From Vampirovibrionia bacterium (GTDB lineage Bacteria; Cyanobacteriota; Vampirovibrionia; LMEP-6097), in the NCBI GenBank assembly GCA_049314535.1, contig JBMOEX010000002.1, positions 1-40,738 on the forward strand: DNA of 40,738 nt, written 5' to 3'. Below are positions 10,078 to 34,430 of this stretch, piece by piece. A program made the position numbers and the translations under genes. The notes beneath the pieces were generated by a model, which saw only the letters and a program-made list of their open reading frames with translations, was not told where the DNA came from and ran no database searches. Every line of letters starts with the position of its first letter. Position 1 is the stretch's first letter.

Positions 10078-11514
10078 TTAATTAAGCCCTGCACCAAAAA
10101 CCGAAATCTTAGTGTTTAAAAGCTTCTTTATAACTTCATCCTTCAAATCCTCACCAATAAAGCCTTCCGCCTCTAAATCTTTTATCATCTTTAAAAATTT
10201 CTTACTGGTTTTTTTAGTAAGACTACTATCTATCAGAGTATTTTTTATCATCTCGATAGAACCTAGATCTATCGAATTAATTCCAGGTACAGCAGTACGA
10301 GTAACACTCAGCTTCTGCTTTTCACATATTTCTCTTAAAAATTTTACTTCAAGAGGAGTTACCACTGAAAAAGCATAACCCGACTTACCAGCTCTAGCAG
10401 TCCTACCAATACGATGCACATAATCCTCAGAATCCCGTGGCAGATTATAGTTTATAACAGCTTCTATATCATCTACATCTATACCTCGTGCTGCTATATC
10501 AGTAGCGATAAGAATCTGAGCCTCACCTTCTCTAAATTTACGCATTACAGCATCACGTTTATTCTGCTTTAAGTCACCATGTAAATTCGCTACACTGAAG
10601 CCCTCATCTTTAAGCGTATAGTAAAGTTTATCTACTTGCACCCTAGTATTACAAAAAATCATCACAGAACGCAGTCTGTATGAGAATAGTAAACGCTTAA
10701 TCAGTTCTATCTTTTGCTCAGCCTTAGTCTCGAAATATTTCTGATCTATTTTAATCTCTGTGACCTTCTTCTTAACTAAATTTAAAAATTCAGGTTTTTT
10801 CTGATGCTTATGAGCAAGCCTAACTATCTCCTGTGGCATAGTCGCAGAGAAGAGAGCTGTCTGTTCACGATTCTTAGTCGCATGTAAAATCGCTTCGATA
10901 TCATCTTTAAAACCCATTTCCAGCATCTTATCTGCTTCATCTAGAATCAAGGTTCTAACTGCTCTTAACTTTACAGTTCCTTGCTTAATATGATCTAATA
11001 GACGCCCAGGTGTAGCTACGATAATACGTGGCTGAGTTTTTAAAGTCTTAAGCTGTGCGTTCATACTCTGACCACCATATATAGCCATGCAAGAAACATC
11101 TTCACGGGACTGCTTGCAACCTTCAATTTCTGCGTTTTCGTCGTCCTCATGATCCTCATGTACCTTCAGTACACTGCGGTCATTCGTCCTTCTCAGCCTT
11201 GAACTTGTAAGTTTGCGAGCAGTCCTATGATATTTAAGCAGTAAATTAAAATGCTCGGCTACTTGAATAGTAAGCTCACGGGTAGGACATAGTACTAAAG
11301 CTTGAATATCTACTGTCTCTTTAATTATTCTCTCTATAACAGGTATCGCAAAAGCGGCTGTCTTACCAGTTCCAGTCTCAGCTTGAACTGTAATATCCTT
11401 CATTTTAAGCATTAATGGAATAGCTTTCTCTTGAACTGGTGTCATAGACTGGAACCCCATATCCCTTAATCCATTTAATGTAAGCTCAGAAAGATTTATT
11501 GCCTTGAAGTTCAT
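10078..11514 (-). CDS. DEAD-box ATP-dependent RNA helicase carrying an in-frame repeat-element insert
   Basis: Q-motif region, AETGTGKT (motif I), PTRELT (Ia), TPGRL (Ib), DEAD (II), SAT (III) and HRIGRTARAG (VI). About 40 extra residues lie between Ia and the GG doublet and are encoded by the repeat at 11107-11225. Confidence 0.9.
   Translation of the reverse strand: MNFKAINLSELTLNGLRDMGFQSMTPVQEKAIPLMLKMKDITVQAETGTGKTAAFAIPVIERIIKETVDIQALVLCPTRELTIQVAEHFNLLLKYHRTARKLTSSRLRRTNDRSVLKVHEDHEDDENAEIEGCKQSREDVSCMAIYGGQSMNAQLKTLKTQPRIIVATPGRLLDHIKQGTVKLRAVRTLILDEADKMLEMGFKDDIEAILHATKNREQTALFSATMPQEIVRLAHKHQKKPEFLNLVKKKVTEIKIDQKYFETKAEQKIELIKRLLFSYRLRSVMIFCNTRVQVDKLYYTLKDEGFSVANLHGDLKQNKRDAVMRKFREGEAQILIATDIAARGIDVDDIEAVINYNLPRDSEDYVHRIGRTARAGKSGYAFSVVTPLEVKFLREICEKQKLSVTRTAVPGINSIDLGSIEMIKNTLIDSSLTKKTSKKFLKMIKDLEAEGFIGEDLKDEVIKKLLNTKISVFGAGLN
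11107..11225 (-). repeat. full L+R palindromic repeat element (short form), in-frame inside the helicase CDS
   Basis: The core differs from the ribH copy at about 3-4 of about 87 positions by hand alignment. Arms are GGACTGCTTGCAA / TTTGCGAGCAGTCC. It encodes TARKLTSSRLRRTNDRSVLKVHEDHEDDENAEIEGCKQS. Confidence 0.85.
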
Positions 11515-11589
11515 TTAAACTATCATAGCTTGTTCTTTGCTTGGAGAAAAATAGAGCCCTGCTGTATCTCTATGTTAAAATCCTAAATG

Positions 11590-11680
11590 TTACTGGGGTG
11601 TTGAGAAATAACTTGACTGAGATCGTAGTAGGCTACGGGACCCTTATAACCTGATCTGGATAATGCCAGCGGAGGGAAAA
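11590..11680 (+). ncRNA. TPP (THI-box) riboswitch
   Basis: ACTGGGGTG...GACTGAGATCG...ACCCTTATAACCTGATCTGGATAATGCCAGCGGAGGGAA carries the conserved CUGAGA and ACCUGAUCUGGAUAAUGCCAGCG cores. It ends at the GGAGGG Shine-Dalgarno, 7 nt before the ATG at 11683. Confidence 0.85.
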
Positions 11681-11682
11681 TA

Positions 11683-12051
11683 ATGCTTGGACGAATTCTT
11701 AGTTTCTTGTCGCCGACTGTAAACTCGGCTCAACTTAATAAATTTGATGATCAACATGTTAATGCTGATATATGCTTGACTCCTATGGGTTCTTCGAATA
11801 CTTCAACTAGAGCCGAGATAAGAAAAGCTGTGGAAATAATGTCAAGAGCTGGTTTTGATGAAGTCAAACCACATGCTTTTGGAACTAATGTTTCAGGAAA
11901 ATGGTCTACTTTAGTAAGGTCTATAGAAAAAATTTCAGAGCAACTACTCCCTGAATGCCAAAGGCTACATTTTGATCTTAGAATTTCAGTAAGAGAGGAT
12001 AAACCTAAACATAGACAGACTATTGGACATACGATAGCAGCTGTGGCGTAA
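11683..12051 (+). CDS. YkoF/MTH1187-family (thiamine-binding, DUF77-like) protein
   Basis: It sits immediately downstream of the TPP riboswitch. The small protein has an ICLTPMG...AVEIMSRAGF...HAFGTNVSGKW pattern, like the V-x-P-x-G...G-T-x-x-E-G layout of the family. The assignment is partly by context. Confidence 0.55.
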   Translation: MLGRILSFLSPTVNSAQLNKFDDQHVNADICLTPMGSSNTSTRAEIRKAVEIMSRAGFDEVKPHAFGTNVSGKWSTLVRSIEKISEQLLPECQRLHFDLRISVREDKPKHRQTIGHTIAAVA

Positions 12052-12101
12052 CAGTCATTCATCCTCCTCAGCCTTGAACTTGCACCCTCGGCAACAGTGC
12101 C
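12052..12101 (-). repeat. solo R module of the repeat family, intergenic, starting 1 nt after the ykoF-like stop codon
   Basis: ACAGTCATTCATCCTCCTCAGCCTTGAACTTGCACCCTCGGCAACAGTGCC compared with canonical GCGGTCATTCGTCCTCCTCAGCCTTGAACTTGCACGTTCGCAAGCAGTGCC. Confidence 0.8.
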
Positions 12102-12142
12102 TTGAACAGTAGTTTCCAAGAAAGTAATATAATAAAGGCTGA

Positions 12143-12817
12143 ATGCTAAATTTAAAAAATAAATTAATCTATATCTTAGCTTTTAGCCTTTTTCTAGCTC
12201 TAAACACTACAGCAGCAGAGACTGTCACAGAGAAACTTTCAGCCACAGCCTCAAAAACCATTGATATCGCAGCAGAGCAGAAAAGAATACAGAATATGTT
12301 TAATGCTTTTATAACGACTATCGGTAAGTCACCTAAAGACTACACTATAGAAGTAGTCGAATCAAAAGATATAAATGCTTTCGCCACTTTAGGACGGCGC
12401 ATAGTGGTTAATACTGAATTAATTAAAACTGTAAATAGTGAATCAGCTTTAGCTATGGTTCTTGCCCATGAATTAGGTCACCTCGAAAGAAAACATTTAG
12501 TAAAAAGCCTTATAAGCCAGAACACTTCAGCCTTAATCAAGCACTATGTCTTTAAAGATAATCGTATCGTGAGTGCGATAAGCTATGCTGGTGGTCTGCA
12601 TTACAGCAGGGAGACAGAAAAAGACGCAGATATGTTCGGCATAAACTTAGTAAACAAGCTCTACTGTAATGTTCCAGGTAAGTTAGAGTTTTTTGAAAAG
12701 ATGTCTAAATTAGAGAATGCTGGGAAACTGCAAGAGTACTTTAGTACGCATCCGCTTTCTAGCAGTCGTATGGAATATCTTACTGCTGAGATTAAGGCTA
12801 AGGGGTGTCTTCTATAA
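12143..12817 (+). CDS. M48-family zinc metallopeptidase (exported)
   Basis: Signal-like N-terminus. HELGHLERKH is an HExxH motif, and a downstream EKDAD fits the third ligand region. Confidence 0.75.
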   Translation: MLNLKNKLIYILAFSLFLALNTTAAETVTEKLSATASKTIDIAAEQKRIQNMFNAFITTIGKSPKDYTIEVVESKDINAFATLGRRIVVNTELIKTVNSESALAMVLAHELGHLERKHLVKSLISQNTSALIKHYVFKDNRIVSAISYAGGLHYSRETEKDADMFGINLVNKLYCNVPGKLEFFEKMSKLENAGKLQEYFSTHPLSSSRMEYLTAEIKAKGCLL

Positions 12818-13462
12818 CCCCAAAACCTGCAAACAAGACAAAGCAAGCTCTTTACCCTTATCATCCTGAGTAACACTCGCTCTTGATAAAGCCTGCTCTT
12901 CAGTATTTACTGTAAGAACCCCATTAATAATCGGTTTCGAGTAATCTAACATCACGTCCATAATGCCTCTTGCTGACTCATTCGCCACTATCTCAAAATG
13001 ATAAGTTTCACCACGAATAATAGTTGCAAAGCAAATTATTGCATGATAACCAGTAAAACTATCATGAGACTGTTTCCAAACTACAATTTCTGCGTTTTCG
13101 TCGTCCTCATGATCCTCATGTACCTTCAGTACACTGCGGTCATTCGTCCTCCTCAGCCTTGAACTTGCACGCTTGGAAACAGTCTCATCATCTATATCAA
13201 GAATCTCATCCTCTAAATCCTTCTCAAAGAGCTTCTGGCAGGCATAAGGCATCTCAAAAGCACCAGGAGTGTAATAACTATCTATATTTTCAGCTCTAAT
13301 ACCAAATTTAATTAAAGTCTCTTTAGCTGAATCTGCCATTTCCTGGTTATAGCCTATATTCCAGTTAGCGATAACTAGAGCTATCCTGATATTCTCAAGA
13401 TAAAGGTTTTCAAGTATTTCTTCTAATTTAAATTCTGGTCTTGAGTGTCGCATATGATGCAT
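12812..13462 (-). CDS. ribH: 6,7-dimethyl-8-ribityllumazine synthase carrying an in-frame repeat-element insert
   Basis: IALVIANWN, PGAFEMPYA, IIRGETYHFEIVANE and NGVLTV match RibH. At 216 aa it is longer than the usual 155 or so, and the excess maps to the repeat at 13064-13188. Confidence 0.85.
   Translation of the reverse strand: MHHMRHSRPEFKLEEILENLYLENIRIALVIANWNIGYNQEMADSAKETLIKFGIRAENIDSYYTPGAFEMPYACQKLFEKDLEDEILDIDDETVSKRASSRLRRTNDRSVLKVHEDHEDDENAEIVVWKQSHDSFTGYHAIICFATIIRGETYHFEIVANESARGIMDVMLDYSKPIINGVLTVNTEEQALSRASVTQDDKGKELALSCLQVLGL
13064..13188 (-). repeat. full L+R palindromic repeat element (short form), in-frame inside ribH
   Basis: Perfect 16-nt inverted arms ATGAGACTGTTTCCAA / TTGGAAACAGTCTCAT flank the conserved core. 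It encodes ETVSKRASSRLRRTNDRSVLKVHEDHEDDENAEIVVWKQSH. Confidence 0.9.
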
Positions 13463-20473: not shown

Positions 20474-21394
20474 CTATGCTAACGCCCTTGATAAATAATT
20501 TTGATTAATCTTTAATAAATCAGTAGCAGACTCAAAATCTAATCCTTTCTTAAGATAAAGAACAGCCTGTTTAACTCTATTATTAGATAAAGCTAAAGCC
20601 TGCTCAGCTAAAGGCTTATCACAGTCCGTAATTAAGCTTACTAATCTAATAGCTCTCTCCTTGAGCTTTTTATTACTCACCTTAACATCTATCATTAGGT
20701 TACCAAAGGTTTTACCTAACTTAACCATAACTGAAGTACTTATAATATTAAGTACCATCTTCTGCGAGGTTCCAGCTTTAAGCCTAGTACTACCTGAAAG
20801 TATCTCAGGACCAGTATCTAAAAAAATAGAATAATCCGCATATTTAATAATCTCAGCTCCATGATTATTGGTCAGTACCGCTGTCTTAGCACCATATTCT
20901 CTCGCTGCTTTTAAAGCTCCTATAACATAAGCTGCTCCACCGCTAGCCGAAATACCGATAACCACATCATGGCACTGCTCACGAACTCCAATTTCTGCGT
21001 TTTCGCTACTCTTTAAATTCATCTTCGCTAAAACATCAGCATAACCAGCAGCTTCATCATCTTCGGCTCCTTCTACTGCATACTGGATGGCTCTTTCACC
21101 ACCAGCGATAATAGCTTTCACTAAATCTGGCTCAGTAGAAAAAGTAGGCGGACATTCTACTGCATCTAAAACACCAAGACGCCCACTAGTACCAGCTCCC
21201 ACATAAATCAATGATCCACCCTGTCTTAAAGATTCACTAACAACTTCGATGACCATTCCGATATCTTCTTTAACATCAGCAATGGCTTTTAAAATCTGTT
21301 GGTGATCATCCACAAAGAGCTGAACTAAATCAGAGGAGTTTAACTGATCTAAATTTTCAGAAAGTGGGTTTACCGATTCTGTTATGGGCAGCAT
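20474..21394 (-). CDS. murQ: N-acetylmuramic acid 6-phosphate etherase carrying a partial repeat insert
   Basis: SIS-domain motifs YVGAGTSGRLGVLDA, ECPPTF, VIGISASG and LSGSTRLKAGTSQK. About 12 extra residues (ENAEIGVREQCH) lie directly before DVVIGISASG. Confidence 0.85.
   Translation of the reverse strand: MLPITESVNPLSENLDQLNSSDLVQLFVDDHQQILKAIADVKEDIGMVIEVVSESLRQGGSLIYVGAGTSGRLGVLDAVECPPTFSTEPDLVKAIIAGGERAIQYAVEGAEDDEAAGYADVLAKMNLKSSENAEIGVREQCHDVVIGISASGGAAYVIGALKAAREYGAKTAVLTNNHGAEIIKYADYSIFLDTGPEILSGSTRLKAGTSQKMVLNIISTSVMVKLGKTFGNLMIDVKVSNKKLKERAIRLVSLITDCDKPLAEQALALSNNRVKQAVLYLKKGLDFESATDLLKINQNYLSRALA
20971..21005 (-). repeat. truncated L module of the repeat family, in-frame inside murQ
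   Basis: GGCACTGCTCACGAACTCCAATTTCTGCGTTTTCG matches the first 35 nt of the L module in the ABC ATPase gene with 1 mismatch. Confidence 0.8.
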
Positions 21395-22608
21395 TATTTA
21401 CACTCTCCTTGATACAGCAGACAAGACACCTTATGGCACTGCTCGCGAACTCCAATTTCTGCGTTTTCGTCGTCCTCATGATCCTCATGTAAGCTTGATA
21501 AATCAAGCTTGTATTTCTGCTTGCTCGGATATGAGCCACTTACATGGCTCGCATCCTCGGCATCGCTAGAAATTACCCGTACACTGCGGTCATTCGTCCT
21601 CCTCAGCCTTGAACTTGCACGTTCGCAAGCAGTGCCATTTTGGGGCTGCTCACGAGCTTCAATTTCTGCGTTTTCGTCGTCCTCATGATCCTCTAAAAGT
21701 GGATCATTGATCTCACAAGCCTCAAAGCATTCAGGACATCTAGTGCGGAAAGCACAACCACTCGGTATTTTAGTTGCACTGGGTATTTCACCATACAAAA
21801 AAGTACGCTCCCTATCACGCTTAGTCGGGTCTGGGAGTGGGGCTGAGCTTAAAAGAGCTTTAGTGTAAGGATGCAAAGGATTACGAAAGAGATCATCTTT
21901 AGCTGCTATTTCAACTATTTTTCCTAGATACATAACAGCTACTCTATCTGCGATAAACTTAGCCACGGCTAAATCATGAGTAATAAAAAGAAAACTAATA
22001 CCCAGCTCCCGCTTAAGCTTCAGCATTAAATTCAATATAGTCCACTGAATCGATACATCTAAAGCACTCACAGCTTCATCTGCAATAATCAATTTAGGAT
22101 TACAAGCTATCGCTCTAGCTATACAGACTCGCTGATTTTGTCCACCTGAACACTGATGTGGATATTTAGAAGCAAGCTCAGCATCAAGTTCAACAAGCTG
22201 CATAAGCTCAAATACTCTTTCTTTAATATTCTTTTCTTTATTTATTCTCAAGGGTTCAGCAATAGAATCAAAAATTTTAAAGCGAGGATCTAAGCTACTA
22301 AAAGGATTCTGGAAAATCATCTGTAAACTTTTTCTTTTATCTAAAAGCTTAGATCCATGAAGATGTAAAAAATCTTCACCTTCAAAATTAATCTCACCAG
22401 AGTCTGGCTCAGTGAGACGAGTTATAAGTCTTGCTAAAGTGGATTTACCGCAGCCAGATTCGCCTACCAAAACTAATATCTCAGCTTTATCAATAGATAA
22501 ATCCACTCCCCTCACGACTTGAAGAAGCTCTTTAGTCGCTAAGCCCCATCCCCCATCTTTTGAGATAGAAAAAGATTTAGATAAATTTTTAACCTCTAAT
22601 AAAGCCAC
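21394..22608 (-). CDS. ABC transporter ATP-binding protein, oligopeptide/dipeptide (OppF/DppF) type, with a composite repeat insert of about 85 aa near the C-terminus
   Basis: Walker A GESGCGKST, signature SGGQNQR, Walker B IIADEA, and the Opp-type C-terminal Cys motif CAFRTRCPECFEAC. The family-typical end H-x-V-x-C (HKVSCLLY) reappears after the insert. GTG start. The stop codon overlaps the murQ ATG (TAATG). Confidence 0.85.
   Translation of the reverse strand: MALLEVKNLSKSFSISKDGGWGLATKELLQVVRGVDLSIDKAEILVLVGESGCGKSTLARLITRLTEPDSGEINFEGEDFLHLHGSKLLDKRKSLQMIFQNPFSSLDPRFKIFDSIAEPLRINKEKNIKERVFELMQLVELDAELASKYPHQCSGGQNQRVCIARAIACNPKLIIADEAVSALDVSIQWTILNLMLKLKRELGISFLFITHDLAVAKFIADRVAVMYLGKIVEIAAKDDLFRNPLHPYTKALLSSAPLPDPTKRDRERTFLYGEIPSATKIPSGCAFRTRCPECFEACEINDPLLEDHEDDENAEIEAREQPQNGTACERASSRLRRTNDRSVRVISSDAEDASHVSGSYPSKQKYKLDLSSLHEDHEDDENAEIGVREQCHKVSCLLYQGECK
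21435..21636 (-). repeat. full L+R repeat element, long form (88-nt internal segment replaces the 7-nt joint)
   Basis: Arms GGCACTGCTCGCGAAC / GTTCGCAAGCAGTGCC (15/16). The ACTG...CAGT anchor span is 196 nt, against 115 nt in both short copies, a difference of 81 nt or 27 codons. Confidence 0.85.
21642..21693 (-). repeat. solo L module, 5 nt from the long element, in-frame in the same CDS
   Basis: GGGGCTGCTCACGAGCTTCAATTTCTGCGTTTTCGTCGTCCTCATGATCCTC. It encodes DHEDDENAEIEAREQP. Confidence 0.85.
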
Positions 22609-30436: not shown

Positions 30437-30481
30437 GGGACACGACGAAAACGCAGAAATTCGAGCTTGTGAGCAGTCCCC
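30437..30481 (+). repeat. solo L module of the repeat family in inverted orientation, filling the gap between two convergent stop codons
   Basis: The reverse complement GGGGACTGCTCACAAGCTCGAATTTCTGCGTTTTCGTCGT matches the L module. The flanks GCTTAAGGGGAC / GTCCCCTAAGC are complementary (one bulge) and include both stop codons. Confidence 0.8.
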
Positions 30482-31596
30482 TAAGCGAAACTGTACGTTA
30501 GGCTGTTGTGTTTAATCTTCCCAGCTTGGTATAATTCTTGCCTTAATGTATCGTAAAGATTACTTGGGGTGGGGCTTTGAGAGATTTCTTGTAATTTAGA
30601 TTTAACTAAATGAAAAGCATTATCTAATTTTACTTTCGATGCAAGTAAATGAGAAACTAAATCACTGCATACCACTTTAGCTGGTATTTTTTCTTTTACT
30701 TTATTATGCTTCAGCTGAGTTTCATTTGTAGCTATAGCTTTTAAATTATTCTCAGAGTTATTGAAAGGTGAAGAAAAAGCAGGAAGCCTAATATTTAAAA
30801 GACTGTTACGTAAACTATCTAAGTGCTGCTTTGGCAACTTATCTGTTAAATTACGTAAATAGCTTTCTATGGATGGTCCTAATTTTTCATTTCCTAAAAT
30901 TTGCACAGCTCTTGAAAAGAGCGTAGGGACATAATAATGAAGATCCTTGTTTTCTTTTAATTCAGTTAAAAAACTTGTCGTATTTTCGACATGCCCAACT
31001 TTAAAAAACTCAAAATCAGTATGGTAAGCAACAGCTCGTTTACTTGCTTTCTGAATATCCTCTATCTTCAGTTCACCATTAAATGGACTTAAATTTTCTT
31101 TACTCGGCTTCTGTGAGCGAAGATCTATGTGAATAAATAATAATCCCTCTGGATTATCTGAAGTAGGGGTGATTCTCACAACTAAACCTGTATGAGTAGG
31201 GCTCAATGCCATACTTAAATACTCCTCAACATTTAAACCCTGCTTTTGAAATTGTGCCTTTAACTCATCTGGTAAAGGATTAGATCTAAGAGCTTTTTGG
31301 ATAGCATTAGGTATCATGTATGGTCCAGCCTGGTGAGGATCTGAAAAAAATACAGCAGTATCCCCCACTTTAGGTAACAGCTGATTTAATTTATTAGATA
31401 AAGCCTTAGCATGCTCAGAGGCACTGACATCTGCATGTAAACTTTTCAGCATCTCCGGAGAGGCTTTTCTCGTCGTAATACCTAGAAAAAAATTCTGAGC
31501 AGGGGCTGGTAATACCTGATAAATTTTAGCGAGACTCGACTTCGCTAAATTCATAACAGGATCAAAAAATTTATTAACAGTTAAGCTAATAGACAT
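30481..31596 (-). CDS. hypothetical protein
   Basis: A 371-aa ORF with no signal peptide or recognised motif. A perfect TATAAT (minus sense, plus-strand coordinates 31629-31634) lies upstream. Confidence 0.5.
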   Translation of the reverse strand: MSISLTVNKFFDPVMNLAKSSLAKIYQVLPAPAQNFFLGITTRKASPEMLKSLHADVSASEHAKALSNKLNQLLPKVGDTAVFFSDPHQAGPYMIPNAIQKALRSNPLPDELKAQFQKQGLNVEEYLSMALSPTHTGLVVRITPTSDNPEGLLFIHIDLRSQKPSKENLSPFNGELKIEDIQKASKRAVAYHTDFEFFKVGHVENTTSFLTELKENKDLHYYVPTLFSRAVQILGNEKLGPSIESYLRNLTDKLPKQHLDSLRNSLLNIRLPAFSSPFNNSENNLKAIATNETQLKHNKVKEKIPAKVVCSDLVSHLLASKVKLDNAFHLVKSKLQEISQSPTPSNLYDTLRQELYQAGKIKHNSLTYSFA

Positions 31597-31697: not shown

Positions 31698-34430
31698 TCA
31701 CGCTCTATTCGCGTACGTCTCTAAGGTCTTGTTTAGAAAATCGCGTATTGTTTGATTATTAGCAGCCTGCAGCGCAGTGCCAAAATAAGAACTCCCCTGG
31801 TTCACAAATTCTACAACTTTATCAGATGGAAGATTCTCAATTATCAGCTCTACGGCTCTAATATTATCGTTATTAGCAGCTTGCATAAGCAGCGTAGAAT
31901 TATTTACAAATGTCCCTGTCAAAGCTTTTACTAATTCATTAGGTAACAGATTCTTAATTATCAGCTCCAGTACTTCGGTATGACCTTTCTGAATATCATA
32001 GATCAGCGCCGTATAACCAAGATCATTCTTCTCAGTCAAAGCGTTTACTAATTTATCGGCTGGAAGATTTTTAATTATCTGCTTTATTACTCCTCCCCTA
32101 GCAGCAATCATCAGCACCGTATCATTATGACGAAGACTATTCTTCTCAGTCACAAGCTCTACTACTTGAGCTGCTGGAAGATTTTTAATTAGCTGATCCA
32201 TTAATTCAGTAATACTTTTTCTAGCAGCAATCATGAGTACAGTATAACCATCAACATCCTTCTCCTTCAAAAATTCTACTAATTTACTGGGTGGAAGCTT
32301 TTCAATTAGCGGCTTTATGAATCCACTATAATTTTTCTGAACAAGAATATATAAGAGGTCACTGAGATAATTCCTATTCTTAGCCAAAACTTCTACTAAT
32401 TTATCAGGTGAAAGATCAATTAGCTGCTTTATTACTTTAAAATGACTTTTGTTATAAGCAATGTTCGGGACGGTAGAATGATAAATACTCTTCTCTGTAA
32501 AAGCTTCTACTAATTTATCAGGTGGAAGATTCTCAATTAGCTGATCCATTAATTCAATATGACCTTCGCTAAGAGCAAAGATGAAGATATTTTCACCTTC
32601 TGGTCTCATCCTTAAATTAGATTTATCTCCATCTCTATCTCTAAAGATTTGAGCCTCCAAGCGACTGAGGCTAGACTTTAACTCACTTTCTTTATATGCA
32701 TCTCCAAATATCTGAGTGAGATCTTTTTCGCGGTCTCGTGTTTTTAGTATTTTTTCTATTCTTGGATCTCCATTTCGACCAAAGTTCTTAATTCCTTTCA
32801 CAATTTCATAGATAAAGAATAAATCGTCCTCTGTAAAGTCTATATTCTTTTGAAATTTACCATAGAGTCTCTCTAGAGCCTTAGTATCTTTATCTGCTCT
32901 TAGCCATTTTTCAAGATTCGGGAATACAGGCTTACCATCTGCATCTCTGCTTTGAAGTTTTTCTTGTAAAATACTGATCCCATTATCGCCTGTAGCATTA
33001 GCAATAAATCCATCTAGATTTTGCCTTGCAGCGATACCACGAATTTCTGATATTTCATCACCATTCATCGCAATAGCTAATCTTGGTAAGACAGGGTTTT
33101 TATTTTTATCTTGAGAGAAGTAAATATAGATATCACCTTGTTTTAAATAACGATCTGCAGTGTCTAAACCCTGCAAGCACCATCCAGTATCCCAATACTT
33201 AATACTATCCCTAAGTTCCTTTGGTTCACTGTCTTTAGGAAACTTTCGCCATTCTCCATCAGTAGTACTTAAATCTATCTTGCTTGTTGTTTGATTCTGC
33301 AAGAATTTATACAGACTACTAAAATGCAGCGTGACAGTACCATTACCTTTAGTAATGTCAATATTATCTTTTAAAAACTTATACAGATTAGGATTTTCTT
33401 GCTCATATTTTTTTTGAATTTCACCCATGATTTTGGTATGAGAATGAATTTCACAGAGTTTTACGATATCATTAATTTCGCCGACTAGAGCTGGATTAAG
33501 GACTGGGAAATCTTTAATTGAATTTGGTGATGATCTATTTTGAAAATTAACTTTAGTGTTTCTTGGATCATTTAATATTAGTGAATAGAGAATAACTTTA
33601 TCTAATTGACCATCAGAGAAGAGCATATTGAGCTTATCTTTAAAGTCATCATCTAGCTCAGGGTTCCTTTGAGTAGTTTGGATAATTTCAGCTTTAATTT
33701 CATCTGGAGCTATCTCACTACGAGCATGTCTACTGATAATGTCTTGAAATTTTTCAAAAGAAGCTGTATCTATATCGGTGTGTGATGCTAGAGAATCTGG
33801 TTTTTCTAATATTCCTTCAAGAACAGATAAGTTCGGCTTATTATCTAGTATTCGTACTTCTAGATCAGCTACTGCATTAAATATCCAGTGTCTCGTCTTA
33901 TTATTTAAGTAAGTAACCCCACCATCTGGATCGTTTAAATAATTAAACCAGTCTGTTAACGAAGCTCTTAGATCAGCTTTTTTATTTTCAAACACTTTTA
34001 GCCTGTCTAGAGTGGCTCCTGGATTGATGTCTCGAGCCAGTTCTTGAAGATGATTAAAATCTGAATCTGTGAGTTCTTGTGGTAAAAAACGCTCTATATA
34101 CTCTATCTTCTTCTCTGCTGAAGAATCTGTAAAGAATTCAGGAGCCTTAGCCAGAATGAATTCTTGAGCTAATTCTAATTTTTTAGAATATTTCGCATTA
34201 GTGATTAAAGATATCCAATCAACAGTGCTTCCATTATTAGTAAAGTCCTTTTCCTCTTCATTTTCTACTATGAGGCGAGTCAAATAGCCTAAAAGTGAAC
34301 TAGAGTCAGGCTGAGATTCAGCAGGGGTGCTAATTTGCTGTACTAGGGCAGTAGCTAAACCTTTGACTCGTGTTTGAATAGGCCTCGGTAATTGAAGCTG
34401 TAAGGTCGAAGGCTTATCTTGAATGACCAC
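31698..34430 (-). CDS. large repeat protein: unknown N-terminal region plus about 8 C-terminal ankyrin-like repeats of about 37 aa
   Basis: 910 aa with a GTG start. The C-terminal third repeats the pattern G-x-T-x-LM-x-AA...(I/L)I(K/E)NLP-x-DKLVE-x-L-x-EKN. The central motif WDTGWCLQGL...GDIYIYFS...EISEIRGIAARQN is unassigned. Confidence 0.65.
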   Translation of the reverse strand: MVIQDKPSTLQLQLPRPIQTRVKGLATALVQQISTPAESQPDSSSLLGYLTRLIVENEEEKDFTNNGSTVDWISLITNAKYSKKLELAQEFILAKAPEFFTDSSAEKKIEYIERFLPQELTDSDFNHLQELARDINPGATLDRLKVFENKKADLRASLTDWFNYLNDPDGGVTYLNNKTRHWIFNAVADLEVRILDNKPNLSVLEGILEKPDSLASHTDIDTASFEKFQDIISRHARSEIAPDEIKAEIIQTTQRNPELDDDFKDKLNMLFSDGQLDKVILYSLILNDPRNTKVNFQNRSSPNSIKDFPVLNPALVGEINDIVKLCEIHSHTKIMGEIQKKYEQENPNLYKFLKDNIDITKGNGTVTLHFSSLYKFLQNQTTSKIDLSTTDGEWRKFPKDSEPKELRDSIKYWDTGWCLQGLDTADRYLKQGDIYIYFSQDKNKNPVLPRLAIAMNGDEISEIRGIAARQNLDGFIANATGDNGISILQEKLQSRDADGKPVFPNLEKWLRADKDTKALERLYGKFQKNIDFTEDDLFFIYEIVKGIKNFGRNGDPRIEKILKTRDREKDLTQIFGDAYKESELKSSLSRLEAQIFRDRDGDKSNLRMRPEGENIFIFALSEGHIELMDQLIENLPPDKLVEAFTEKSIYHSTVPNIAYNKSHFKVIKQLIDLSPDKLVEVLAKNRNYLSDLLYILVQKNYSGFIKPLIEKLPPSKLVEFLKEKDVDGYTVLMIAARKSITELMDQLIKNLPAAQVVELVTEKNSLRHNDTVLMIAARGGVIKQIIKNLPADKLVNALTEKNDLGYTALIYDIQKGHTEVLELIIKNLLPNELVKALTGTFVNNSTLLMQAANNDNIRAVELIIENLPSDKVVEFVNQGSSYFGTALQAANNQTIRDFLNKTLETYANRA
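31718..32590 (-). repeat. intragenic tandem coding repeats (period about 110 nt)
   Basis: For example, GGTGGAAGATTCTCAATTAGCTGATCCATTAATTCA at 32521 and GCTGGAAGATTTTTAATTAGCTGATCCATTAATTCA at 32171. NLP-x-DKLVE units recur about 8 times in the protein. Confidence 0.6.

Follow-up and report, generated by a model that had tools for sequence, protein, structure and literature searches.

A DEAD-box RNA helicase gene of a freshwater Melainabacteria genus carries a probable in-frame copy of a palindromic MITE

A DEAD-box RNA helicase gene in the window (the whole stretch of 40,738 nucleotides analysed here) contains 41 codons that its closest orthologues lack. Very probably, these codons are an in-frame copy of a non-autonomous palindromic MITE, abundant in one freshwater Melainabacteria genus, which is tolerated as a disordered loop in a working helicase. 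A preliminary description, made from the sequence alone, had noticed the segment and gave no cause for it; the peptide results from reading through a mobile palindromic repeat that is dispersed in the genome, and is not a feature of helicases. Coordinates of the features are collected in Table 1.

Table 1. Positions in the window of the helicase gene, its insert and the copies of the repeat
Feature	Position	Strand	Evidence or context
DEAD-box RNA helicase gene	10078..11514	-	ORF, Pfam DEAD and Helicase_C, Foldseek, orthologues
Atypical second junction of the helicase copy	11094..11105	+	2 nt of the expected 5-bp duplicate left
Inserted 123 nt (41 codons, R97-R137)	11104..11226	-	Codon-level DNA alignment; split protein matches
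121-nt element in the helicase gene, model orientation	11106..11226	+	nhmmer model and end extrapolation
Retained 5-bp target copy (ATGAT on the + strand, ATCAT in gene orientation)	11227..11231	+	Flank listing
Partial copy, right half, intergenic	12044..12103	+	Overlaps last codons and stop of the thiamine-binding-protein ORF (11683-12051)
Second full copy (element 13066-13186) with ATCAT/ATCAT duplication	13061..13191	+	Repeat finding, flanks, Pfam
Short left-end remnant, in frame	20944..21022	+	Inside MurQ-like SIS-domain gene 20474-21394 (-)
Composite of ~1.5 copies, in frame	21408..21693	+	Near C-terminus of oligopeptide-type ABC ATPase 21394-22608 (-)
Left-end remnant	30442..30485	-	Short spacer between two convergent genes

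Results

The helicase gene and its empty site

By its domains, motifs and fold, the host gene is a DEAD-box RNA helicase. Its product has 478 residues, versus 437 for insert-free orthologues, and is matched well over the cut-offs by the Pfam families DEAD (2.2e-46, 158 bits) and Helicase_C (1.5e-32, 113 bits), with the DEAD match broken into two stretches. The best Foldseek matches of the structural model are CshA, DbpA and Hera (E-values 1e-41 to 1e-33, identity 34-40%). Residues of motifs Q, I, Ia, GG, Ib, II (DEAD), III (SAT) and VI are invariant in an alignment of 63 sequences. The window helicase thus resembles CshA, DbpA, Hera and DeaD in having all core motifs and two RecA-like domains, but it differs from the 62 aligned homologues (99% down to 42% identity): in none of these is there a segment at the turn from helix to strand that separates motif Ia from the GG doublet. 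It is here, between PTRELT (motif Ia) and AIYGGQS (GG doublet), that the insert lies. About 30 close orthologue clusters contain 436-437 residues, and one cluster (P0001, 478 residues) carries the insert.

At the DNA level, three genomes of the same genus (G001, G002 and G004) have an uninterrupted helicase site, with flanks of 93-96% nucleotide identity. Their orthologues match residues 1-97 and 138-478 of the window protein, and the corresponding DNA coordinates abut, in an open frame of 437 residues. When the DNA is aligned with these three orthologues, the insert comes out at exactly 123 nt, or 41 codons, with a placement ambiguity of 1 nt. The empty site reads AAATATCA followed by TGAGAAT, and the window has the same sequence plus exactly 123 bases. 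The target pentamer is present once at the empty site. Of the second target copy expected in the filled gene, 2 nt remain, and hence this insertion adds 123 nt rather than 126.

A 22-nt piece of the insert occurs four times in the window and never in 100 shuffles, which places this segment far outside chance. The peptide is basic in its first half (8 K+R) and acidic in its second (8 D+E). An assembly artefact can be discounted, as the insert-bearing gene is present in two public assemblies that are independent of each other (L122 from JGI and L123 from ENA). In addition, two DNA runs belonging to separate studies gave contigs that continue from the helicase flank into the element at both sides; one matches the window allele exactly (the sample of run X1 contains this exact allele) and the other is ~4% diverged. 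Parts of the helicase locus are present in many metagenomes (20 listed matches from 15 studies). Metatranscriptome contigs from two runs match only other copies of the element, with unlike flanks, or a conserved helicase motif of another organism.

The preliminary description had reported an insert of about 40 residues in RecA1, and such an insert is real, although its limits are R97-R137 (41 residues, 11104-11226) and not 11107-11225 (39 residues). Its statements that the canonical helicase motifs are kept and that the peptide is basic and then acidic both agree with the data above, and no orthologue outside the lineage was found to have a homologous segment.

A family of 121-nt palindromic repeats

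The inserted segment is a member of a repeat family. A profile made from two full copies gave 228 matches in the window's own genome (G000; 2.12 Mb, 188 contigs, 35.8% GC), and a refined model of the 121-nt core gave 250 nhmmer matches there, 59 of them full length. The consensus is 121 nt, and 52 copies have exactly this length. Repeat finding recovered six full or partial copies in the window. Across the genome, 136 matches comprise the left half only and 51 the right half only, compared to the 59 that are full. Contig ends lie at most 150 nt from a copy in 26 of 376 cases, and for this reason the repeat probably breaks up the assembly. No Rfam family covers the element.

In the helicase copy, inverted arms of ~14 nt occupy 11106-11119 and 11213-11226. 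This copy belongs to a sub-family whose arms start with GGGACTGCTCGCAA, and it folds end to end, with −45.8 kcal/mol and a z of −5.4 for the sense RNA and a z of −3.5 for single-stranded DNA. Many copies are bordered by direct 5-bp target repeats, for example ATCAT on both sides of the copy in RibH and CTGAG on both sides of another. Since 121 + 5 = 126 nt, or 42 codons, a standard insertion leaves the reading frame unshifted.

The outer 14 nt of the arms show 58% identity between copies, versus 89% for the core, and yet an average of 12.6 of the 14 positions pair within a copy, compared to 8.0 of 14 between copies. The pattern suggests that, at the ends, sequence is less important than pairing. 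Such variable arms are unusual for the ends recognised by a sequence-specific DDE transposase. As many as 39 distinct left arms are seen among 52 copies (e.g. C21, C22, C24), all still self-complementary, and the core is nearly invariant.

By structure, the family has the hallmarks of a MITE: terminal inverted repeats (complementary to the extent just given), target-site duplications (with the helicase copy retaining one pentamer plus 2 nt of the other), small size, many copies, no transposase, and polymorphism with empty sites at both the helicase and RibH loci. A cognate autonomous IS with the same ends was not found in these genomes, although draft MAGs may simply miss it.

Search for a mobilising enzyme

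Judging from its inverted ends, its constant length and the 5-bp duplications, the element would move by cut-or-copy transposition, with an enzyme supplied in trans. The search for a partner considered left-end and right-end matches lying 150-9000 nt apart in the window's genome. Seven end pairs were found, one of them with matching arms. That pair encloses ORFs that, judged from their sequence, appear to be HAD-like and RNase H-like, with no sign of a transposase, and it was not taken for an autonomous element.

Neither PF01526 (Tn3) nor PF01797 (Y1/RAYT) was found in five genomes of the genus. Transposases of PF01609 and PF00665 are present in congeners, where the PF01609 IS is of the IS4/IS5 type. 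One IS of 1272 bp, which has 20-bp inverted ends and encodes a DDE_Tnp_1 transposase of 410 aa, was seen in congeners G002 and G006 (L144, 7-1278; L145, 1102-2373), and was not found in the assembly of the window's genome. It was dismissed as a partner, its ends starting with AGGGCTGTCTCATTC and being unrelated to the element beyond a GGG.CTG start, and the element model has no match at those loci. A GIY-YIG enzyme was also considered and rejected; the sole match is one ORF of 640-680 aa per genome, probably UvrC.

Copies inside protein-coding genes

The consensus has one stop-free frame per strand, one encoding a charged peptide and the other a more hydrophobic peptide with Cys and Pro. We scored a copy as genic when the open frame extended at least 40 codons on both sides. 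By this measure, 33 of the 59 full copies (56%) lie inside long ORFs, and 31 of these 33 use one orientation and the charged, hydrophilic frame (binomial P about 7e-8). Stop-containing readings of the element are absent from ORFs. Together, the 31:2 frame bias and the finding that no ORFs are interrupted argue indirectly for translation of the elements and for purging of insertions that were unsuitable.

Pfam families were recognised in 19 of 20 sampled host ORFs, with several of the domain matches split in two. Hosts include GltX, CoaBC, LpxB, PdxA, ArgJ, RibH, an EF-Tu-type GTPase, a tRNA methyltransferase, permeases and others. A near-identical peptide (SSRLRRTNDRSVLKVHEDHEDDENAEI) is found in a lumazine synthase of 216 residues encoded 2 kb from the helicase; in this case the copy adds 42 codons to the RibH gene (12812-13462, minus strand) and the target duplication is perfect. 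In public metagenomes, searched among proteins of 262-837 residues, the 44-residue insert region has counterparts in at least 404 protein clusters, which represent dozens of unrelated families. Among the 120 clusters listed, the sole DEAD-box helicase is the window helicase's own cluster.

Host range of the element

The window's genome is a 2.1-Mb Melainabacteria/Caenarcaniphilales MAG, the order being taken from the labels of sister MAGs, and the run labels indicate a freshwater habitat. Of 40 relatives searched, all six genomes of the same genus contain the element. One further genus of the family has it at about 80% identity, a third genus shows one isolated weak match (E 2e-4), and the remaining 32 relatives lack it.

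An exact 28-nt core pattern was found in MAGs assigned to Candidatus Caenarcaniphilales, Candidatus Melainabacteria and Cyanobacteria bacterium REEB446, as well as in one unclassified 'bacterium' and one 'Proteobacteria bacterium' MAG. The last of these labels is probably wrong and the MAG a misclassified Melainabacteria bin, since a protein labelled 'Proteobacteria bacterium' (437 aa, empty site) is among the closest helicase orthologues. The element lies on many contigs of the MAG 'Proteobacteria bacterium WB4_1_1465' (L006 and other RFQS01 loci).

History of the filled and empty alleles

The insert-bearing protein P0001 is encoded on both L122 and L123 and has the same insert, and the same odd junction, as the window gene. 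These two filled alleles differ at 77 of 1437 bases (5.4%), with 71 synonymous and 4 non-synonymous codon differences. Rough site counts place the ratio near 0.02, which points to strong purifying selection on a gene that already bore the insert and accords with the earlier judgement that the gene does not look like a pseudogene. Codon changes number 2 of 41 in the insert versus 73 of 437 elsewhere, a difference that is marginal (Poisson P about 0.05).

Four substitutions at most 9 nt from the insertion point (within 11094-11103) change ENIA to EDVS and are common only to insert-bearing alleles. Repair may have been imprecise when the element inserted, or the changes may be compensatory. In a helicase tree calculated without the insert columns, the filled allele of the window groups with the empty allele of G004 (support 0.91) and not with the second filled allele. 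The two filled alleles have five derived sites in common, four of which are the ones at most 9 nt from the insertion point, whereas the eight derived sites common to the window allele and G004 are scattered, with one located 55 nt upstream of the insertion point. This difference in distribution suggests a single insertion event, with the junction changes arriving at the same time or soon after, followed by recombination between lineages or by loss of the insert from a G004-like allele through recombination with an empty one. The genealogy of the helicase gene, compared here with L103 and L122, is in this sense mosaic and suggests that lineages of the genus have recombined.

Close lineages differ in which of two neighbouring genes are filled: the window has both the helicase and the RibH copy, L122 only the former, and G001, G002 and G004 are without the helicase copy. 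The corresponding RibH loop of L122 has a longer acidic run (DEDLDE).

Other differences are evident in the same neighbourhood. A TPP riboswitch at 11584-11696 (67.9 bits) precedes the 122-aa thiamine-binding-protein ORF (PF01910) in the window. The cassette formed by the two (11577-12122, ~547 nt), whose far end carries the partial repeat copy at 12044-12103, is absent in L122, and there the helicase gene directly adjoins that of the M48 peptidase. Conversely, in L122 (580-2123, 4442-5893) two additional genes separate the M48 peptidase gene from RibH, and a 248-aa gene and a TetR regulator lie beside the helicase; the window has none of these. These differences indicate fast turnover of gene content at about 91-95% DNA identity. 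Elsewhere in the window, 31778-32600 holds a tandem array of at least six units of ~117 nt (39 codons), 60-80% identical to one another.

Predicted structure of the filled protein

AlphaFold2, run with a 63-row alignment, predicts a confident and intact DEAD-box core (mean pLDDT 83.6, most blocks near 90). In the model, residues 99-137 form a coil with pLDDT values of 25-43, between helix 79-96 and strand 142-145 of RecA1, consistent with the surface loop that the preliminary description had proposed. One caveat here is that only one row of the alignment contains the segment, which may account in part for the low pLDDT. Motif Ia sits at the start of the helix and the GG doublet at the end of the strand, with the insert at the opposite end of both. 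Given this alpha/beta topology, the insert is probably remote from the RNA- and ATP-binding face.

Discussion

On the reading we favour, a 121-nt element together with its usual 5-bp target duplication adds 42 codons and never shifts the frame. One of the six possible readings gives a stop-free, highly charged and hydrophilic peptide, and copies would persist when they happen to lie in that reading at a loop-tolerant position of a protein. For the helicase, the landing place would be the turn between the helix after motif Ia and the strand leading to the GG doublet. This turn lies at the helix end opposite motif Ia, so that the RNA and ATP sites are probably remote. The helicase would then be translated through the element and keep working, the 41 residues forming a disordered surface loop with a near-neutral effect. 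Points against this reading are the failure to find an autonomous partner in the genomes searched, the variable arms and, for the helicase copy, the absence of an intact second target duplicate.

An alternative is exaptation, in which the loop has gained a function in the helicase, for example in binding RNA or a partner as a charged arm, or in tuning activity, and is kept by selection. The filled allele has retained an intact frame in two lineages that are 5.4% apart in DNA, four junction substitutions travel with the insert, and the division of the peptide into basic and acidic halves would suit such an arm. The insert has also changed less than the rest of the gene, but this marginal difference is equally compatible with constraint on the hairpin, gene conversion between copies, or recombination. 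Moreover, the same peptide occurs in hundreds of unrelated proteins, the ~30 close orthologue clusters and three congeners do without it, and the AlphaFold2 model shows it as unstructured. We therefore regard a selected function as unlikely.

Two other explanations deny the loop any place in a working enzyme. The segment could be removed before the protein acts, in the manner of an intron or an intein, leaving a canonical mature helicase. Although the sense RNA can form a strong hairpin (−45.8 kcal/mol, z −5.4), Rfam gave no intron or ribozyme match and Pfam no domain over residues 97-137, and at 41 residues the segment is far under the size of any Hint/intein domain. Inteins need Cys, Ser or Thr as the residue after them, whereas the residue following this insert is Glu. 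Were the element excised before translation, neither the 31:2 frame bias nor the lack of stop-containing readings in ORFs would be expected, and we give removal very little credence. It could also be that the insertion disabled the helicase, which is now turning into a pseudogene while a paralogue covers its role. A second DEAD-box gene, 43% identical, is indeed present in this genome and in each congener. Such decay is nonetheless extremely improbable in view of the 71 synonymous versus 4 non-synonymous differences, which imply purifying selection over the whole gene (ratio near 0.02), and of the retention of every invariant motif residue. The data as a whole fit best with a tolerated MITE copy.

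The closest known parallel is provided by the Rickettsia palindromic elements, RPE-1 to RPE-10 (Ogata et al. 2000 Science, 2002 Genome Res; via PMC10969869, PMC3184786). Like the family described here, RPEs are short (about 105-150 bp) palindromic dispersed repeats (PMC3184786), about half of whose copies lie in frame in unrelated housekeeping genes and encode a conserved peptide (PMC10969869). In both cases, the positions occupied are apparently compatible with the protein fold, and presence or absence varies between close relatives. With 33 of 59 full copies in genes, the 121-nt family conforms to the RPE pattern of a ~100-150-bp palindromic repeat having many in-frame genic copies. There are differences as well. 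The RPE host is an obligate intracellular alphaproteobacterium, whereas the 121-nt element inhabits another phylum, in fresh water. The 121-nt family has clear 5-bp target duplications and a fixed length, and is hence frame-neutral (126 = 42 x 3), and its outer arms, though different from copy to copy, still pair within each copy. We would thus call the family RPE-like in behaviour and a MITE by structure, and do not assign it to the RPE families.

QMITE1/2 of Coxiella burnetii (PMC5896051) and intragenic ERIC/BOX elements (PMC10969869) are likewise non-autonomous and multi-copy, with inverted ends, target duplications and occasional read-through. In those families, however, in-frame genic copies are exceptional and are mostly confined to gene ends or hypothetical genes, in contrast to the 121-nt family, where 56% of full copies are internal to conserved enzymes and the frame bias is 31:2. 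The literature that we searched contains no description of such elements in Melainabacteria.

It is conceivable, though on balance doubtful, that the family is an independently evolved 'protein-compatible' selfish element, for which the 126-nt rule and the hydrophilic, disorder-prone frame would be adaptations, and whose ends may be recognised by shape. If the ends are indeed recognised in this way, the mobilising enzyme would be unlike the usual sequence-specific DDE transposases. The junction substitutions and the mosaic genealogy would, in turn, record the accommodation of the insert and its spread through the population by recombination.

For annotation, inserts of this kind split domain matches and can pass for lineage-specific features of proteins. 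The helicase copy itself represents a clean natural experiment, in that filled and empty alleles with 93-96% identical DNA coexist in nature. Since the filled allele is clearly under purifying selection, the cost or benefit of 41 disordered residues should be directly measurable. Invasion of housekeeping proteins by in-frame palindromic repeats has so far been treated as a peculiarity of Rickettsia. Here, a phenomenon of similar intensity is seen in a freshwater, non-photosynthetic cyanobacterial lineage, with features that are missing or unclear for RPEs: exact empty sites, 5-bp duplications and a length rule that spares the reading frame.
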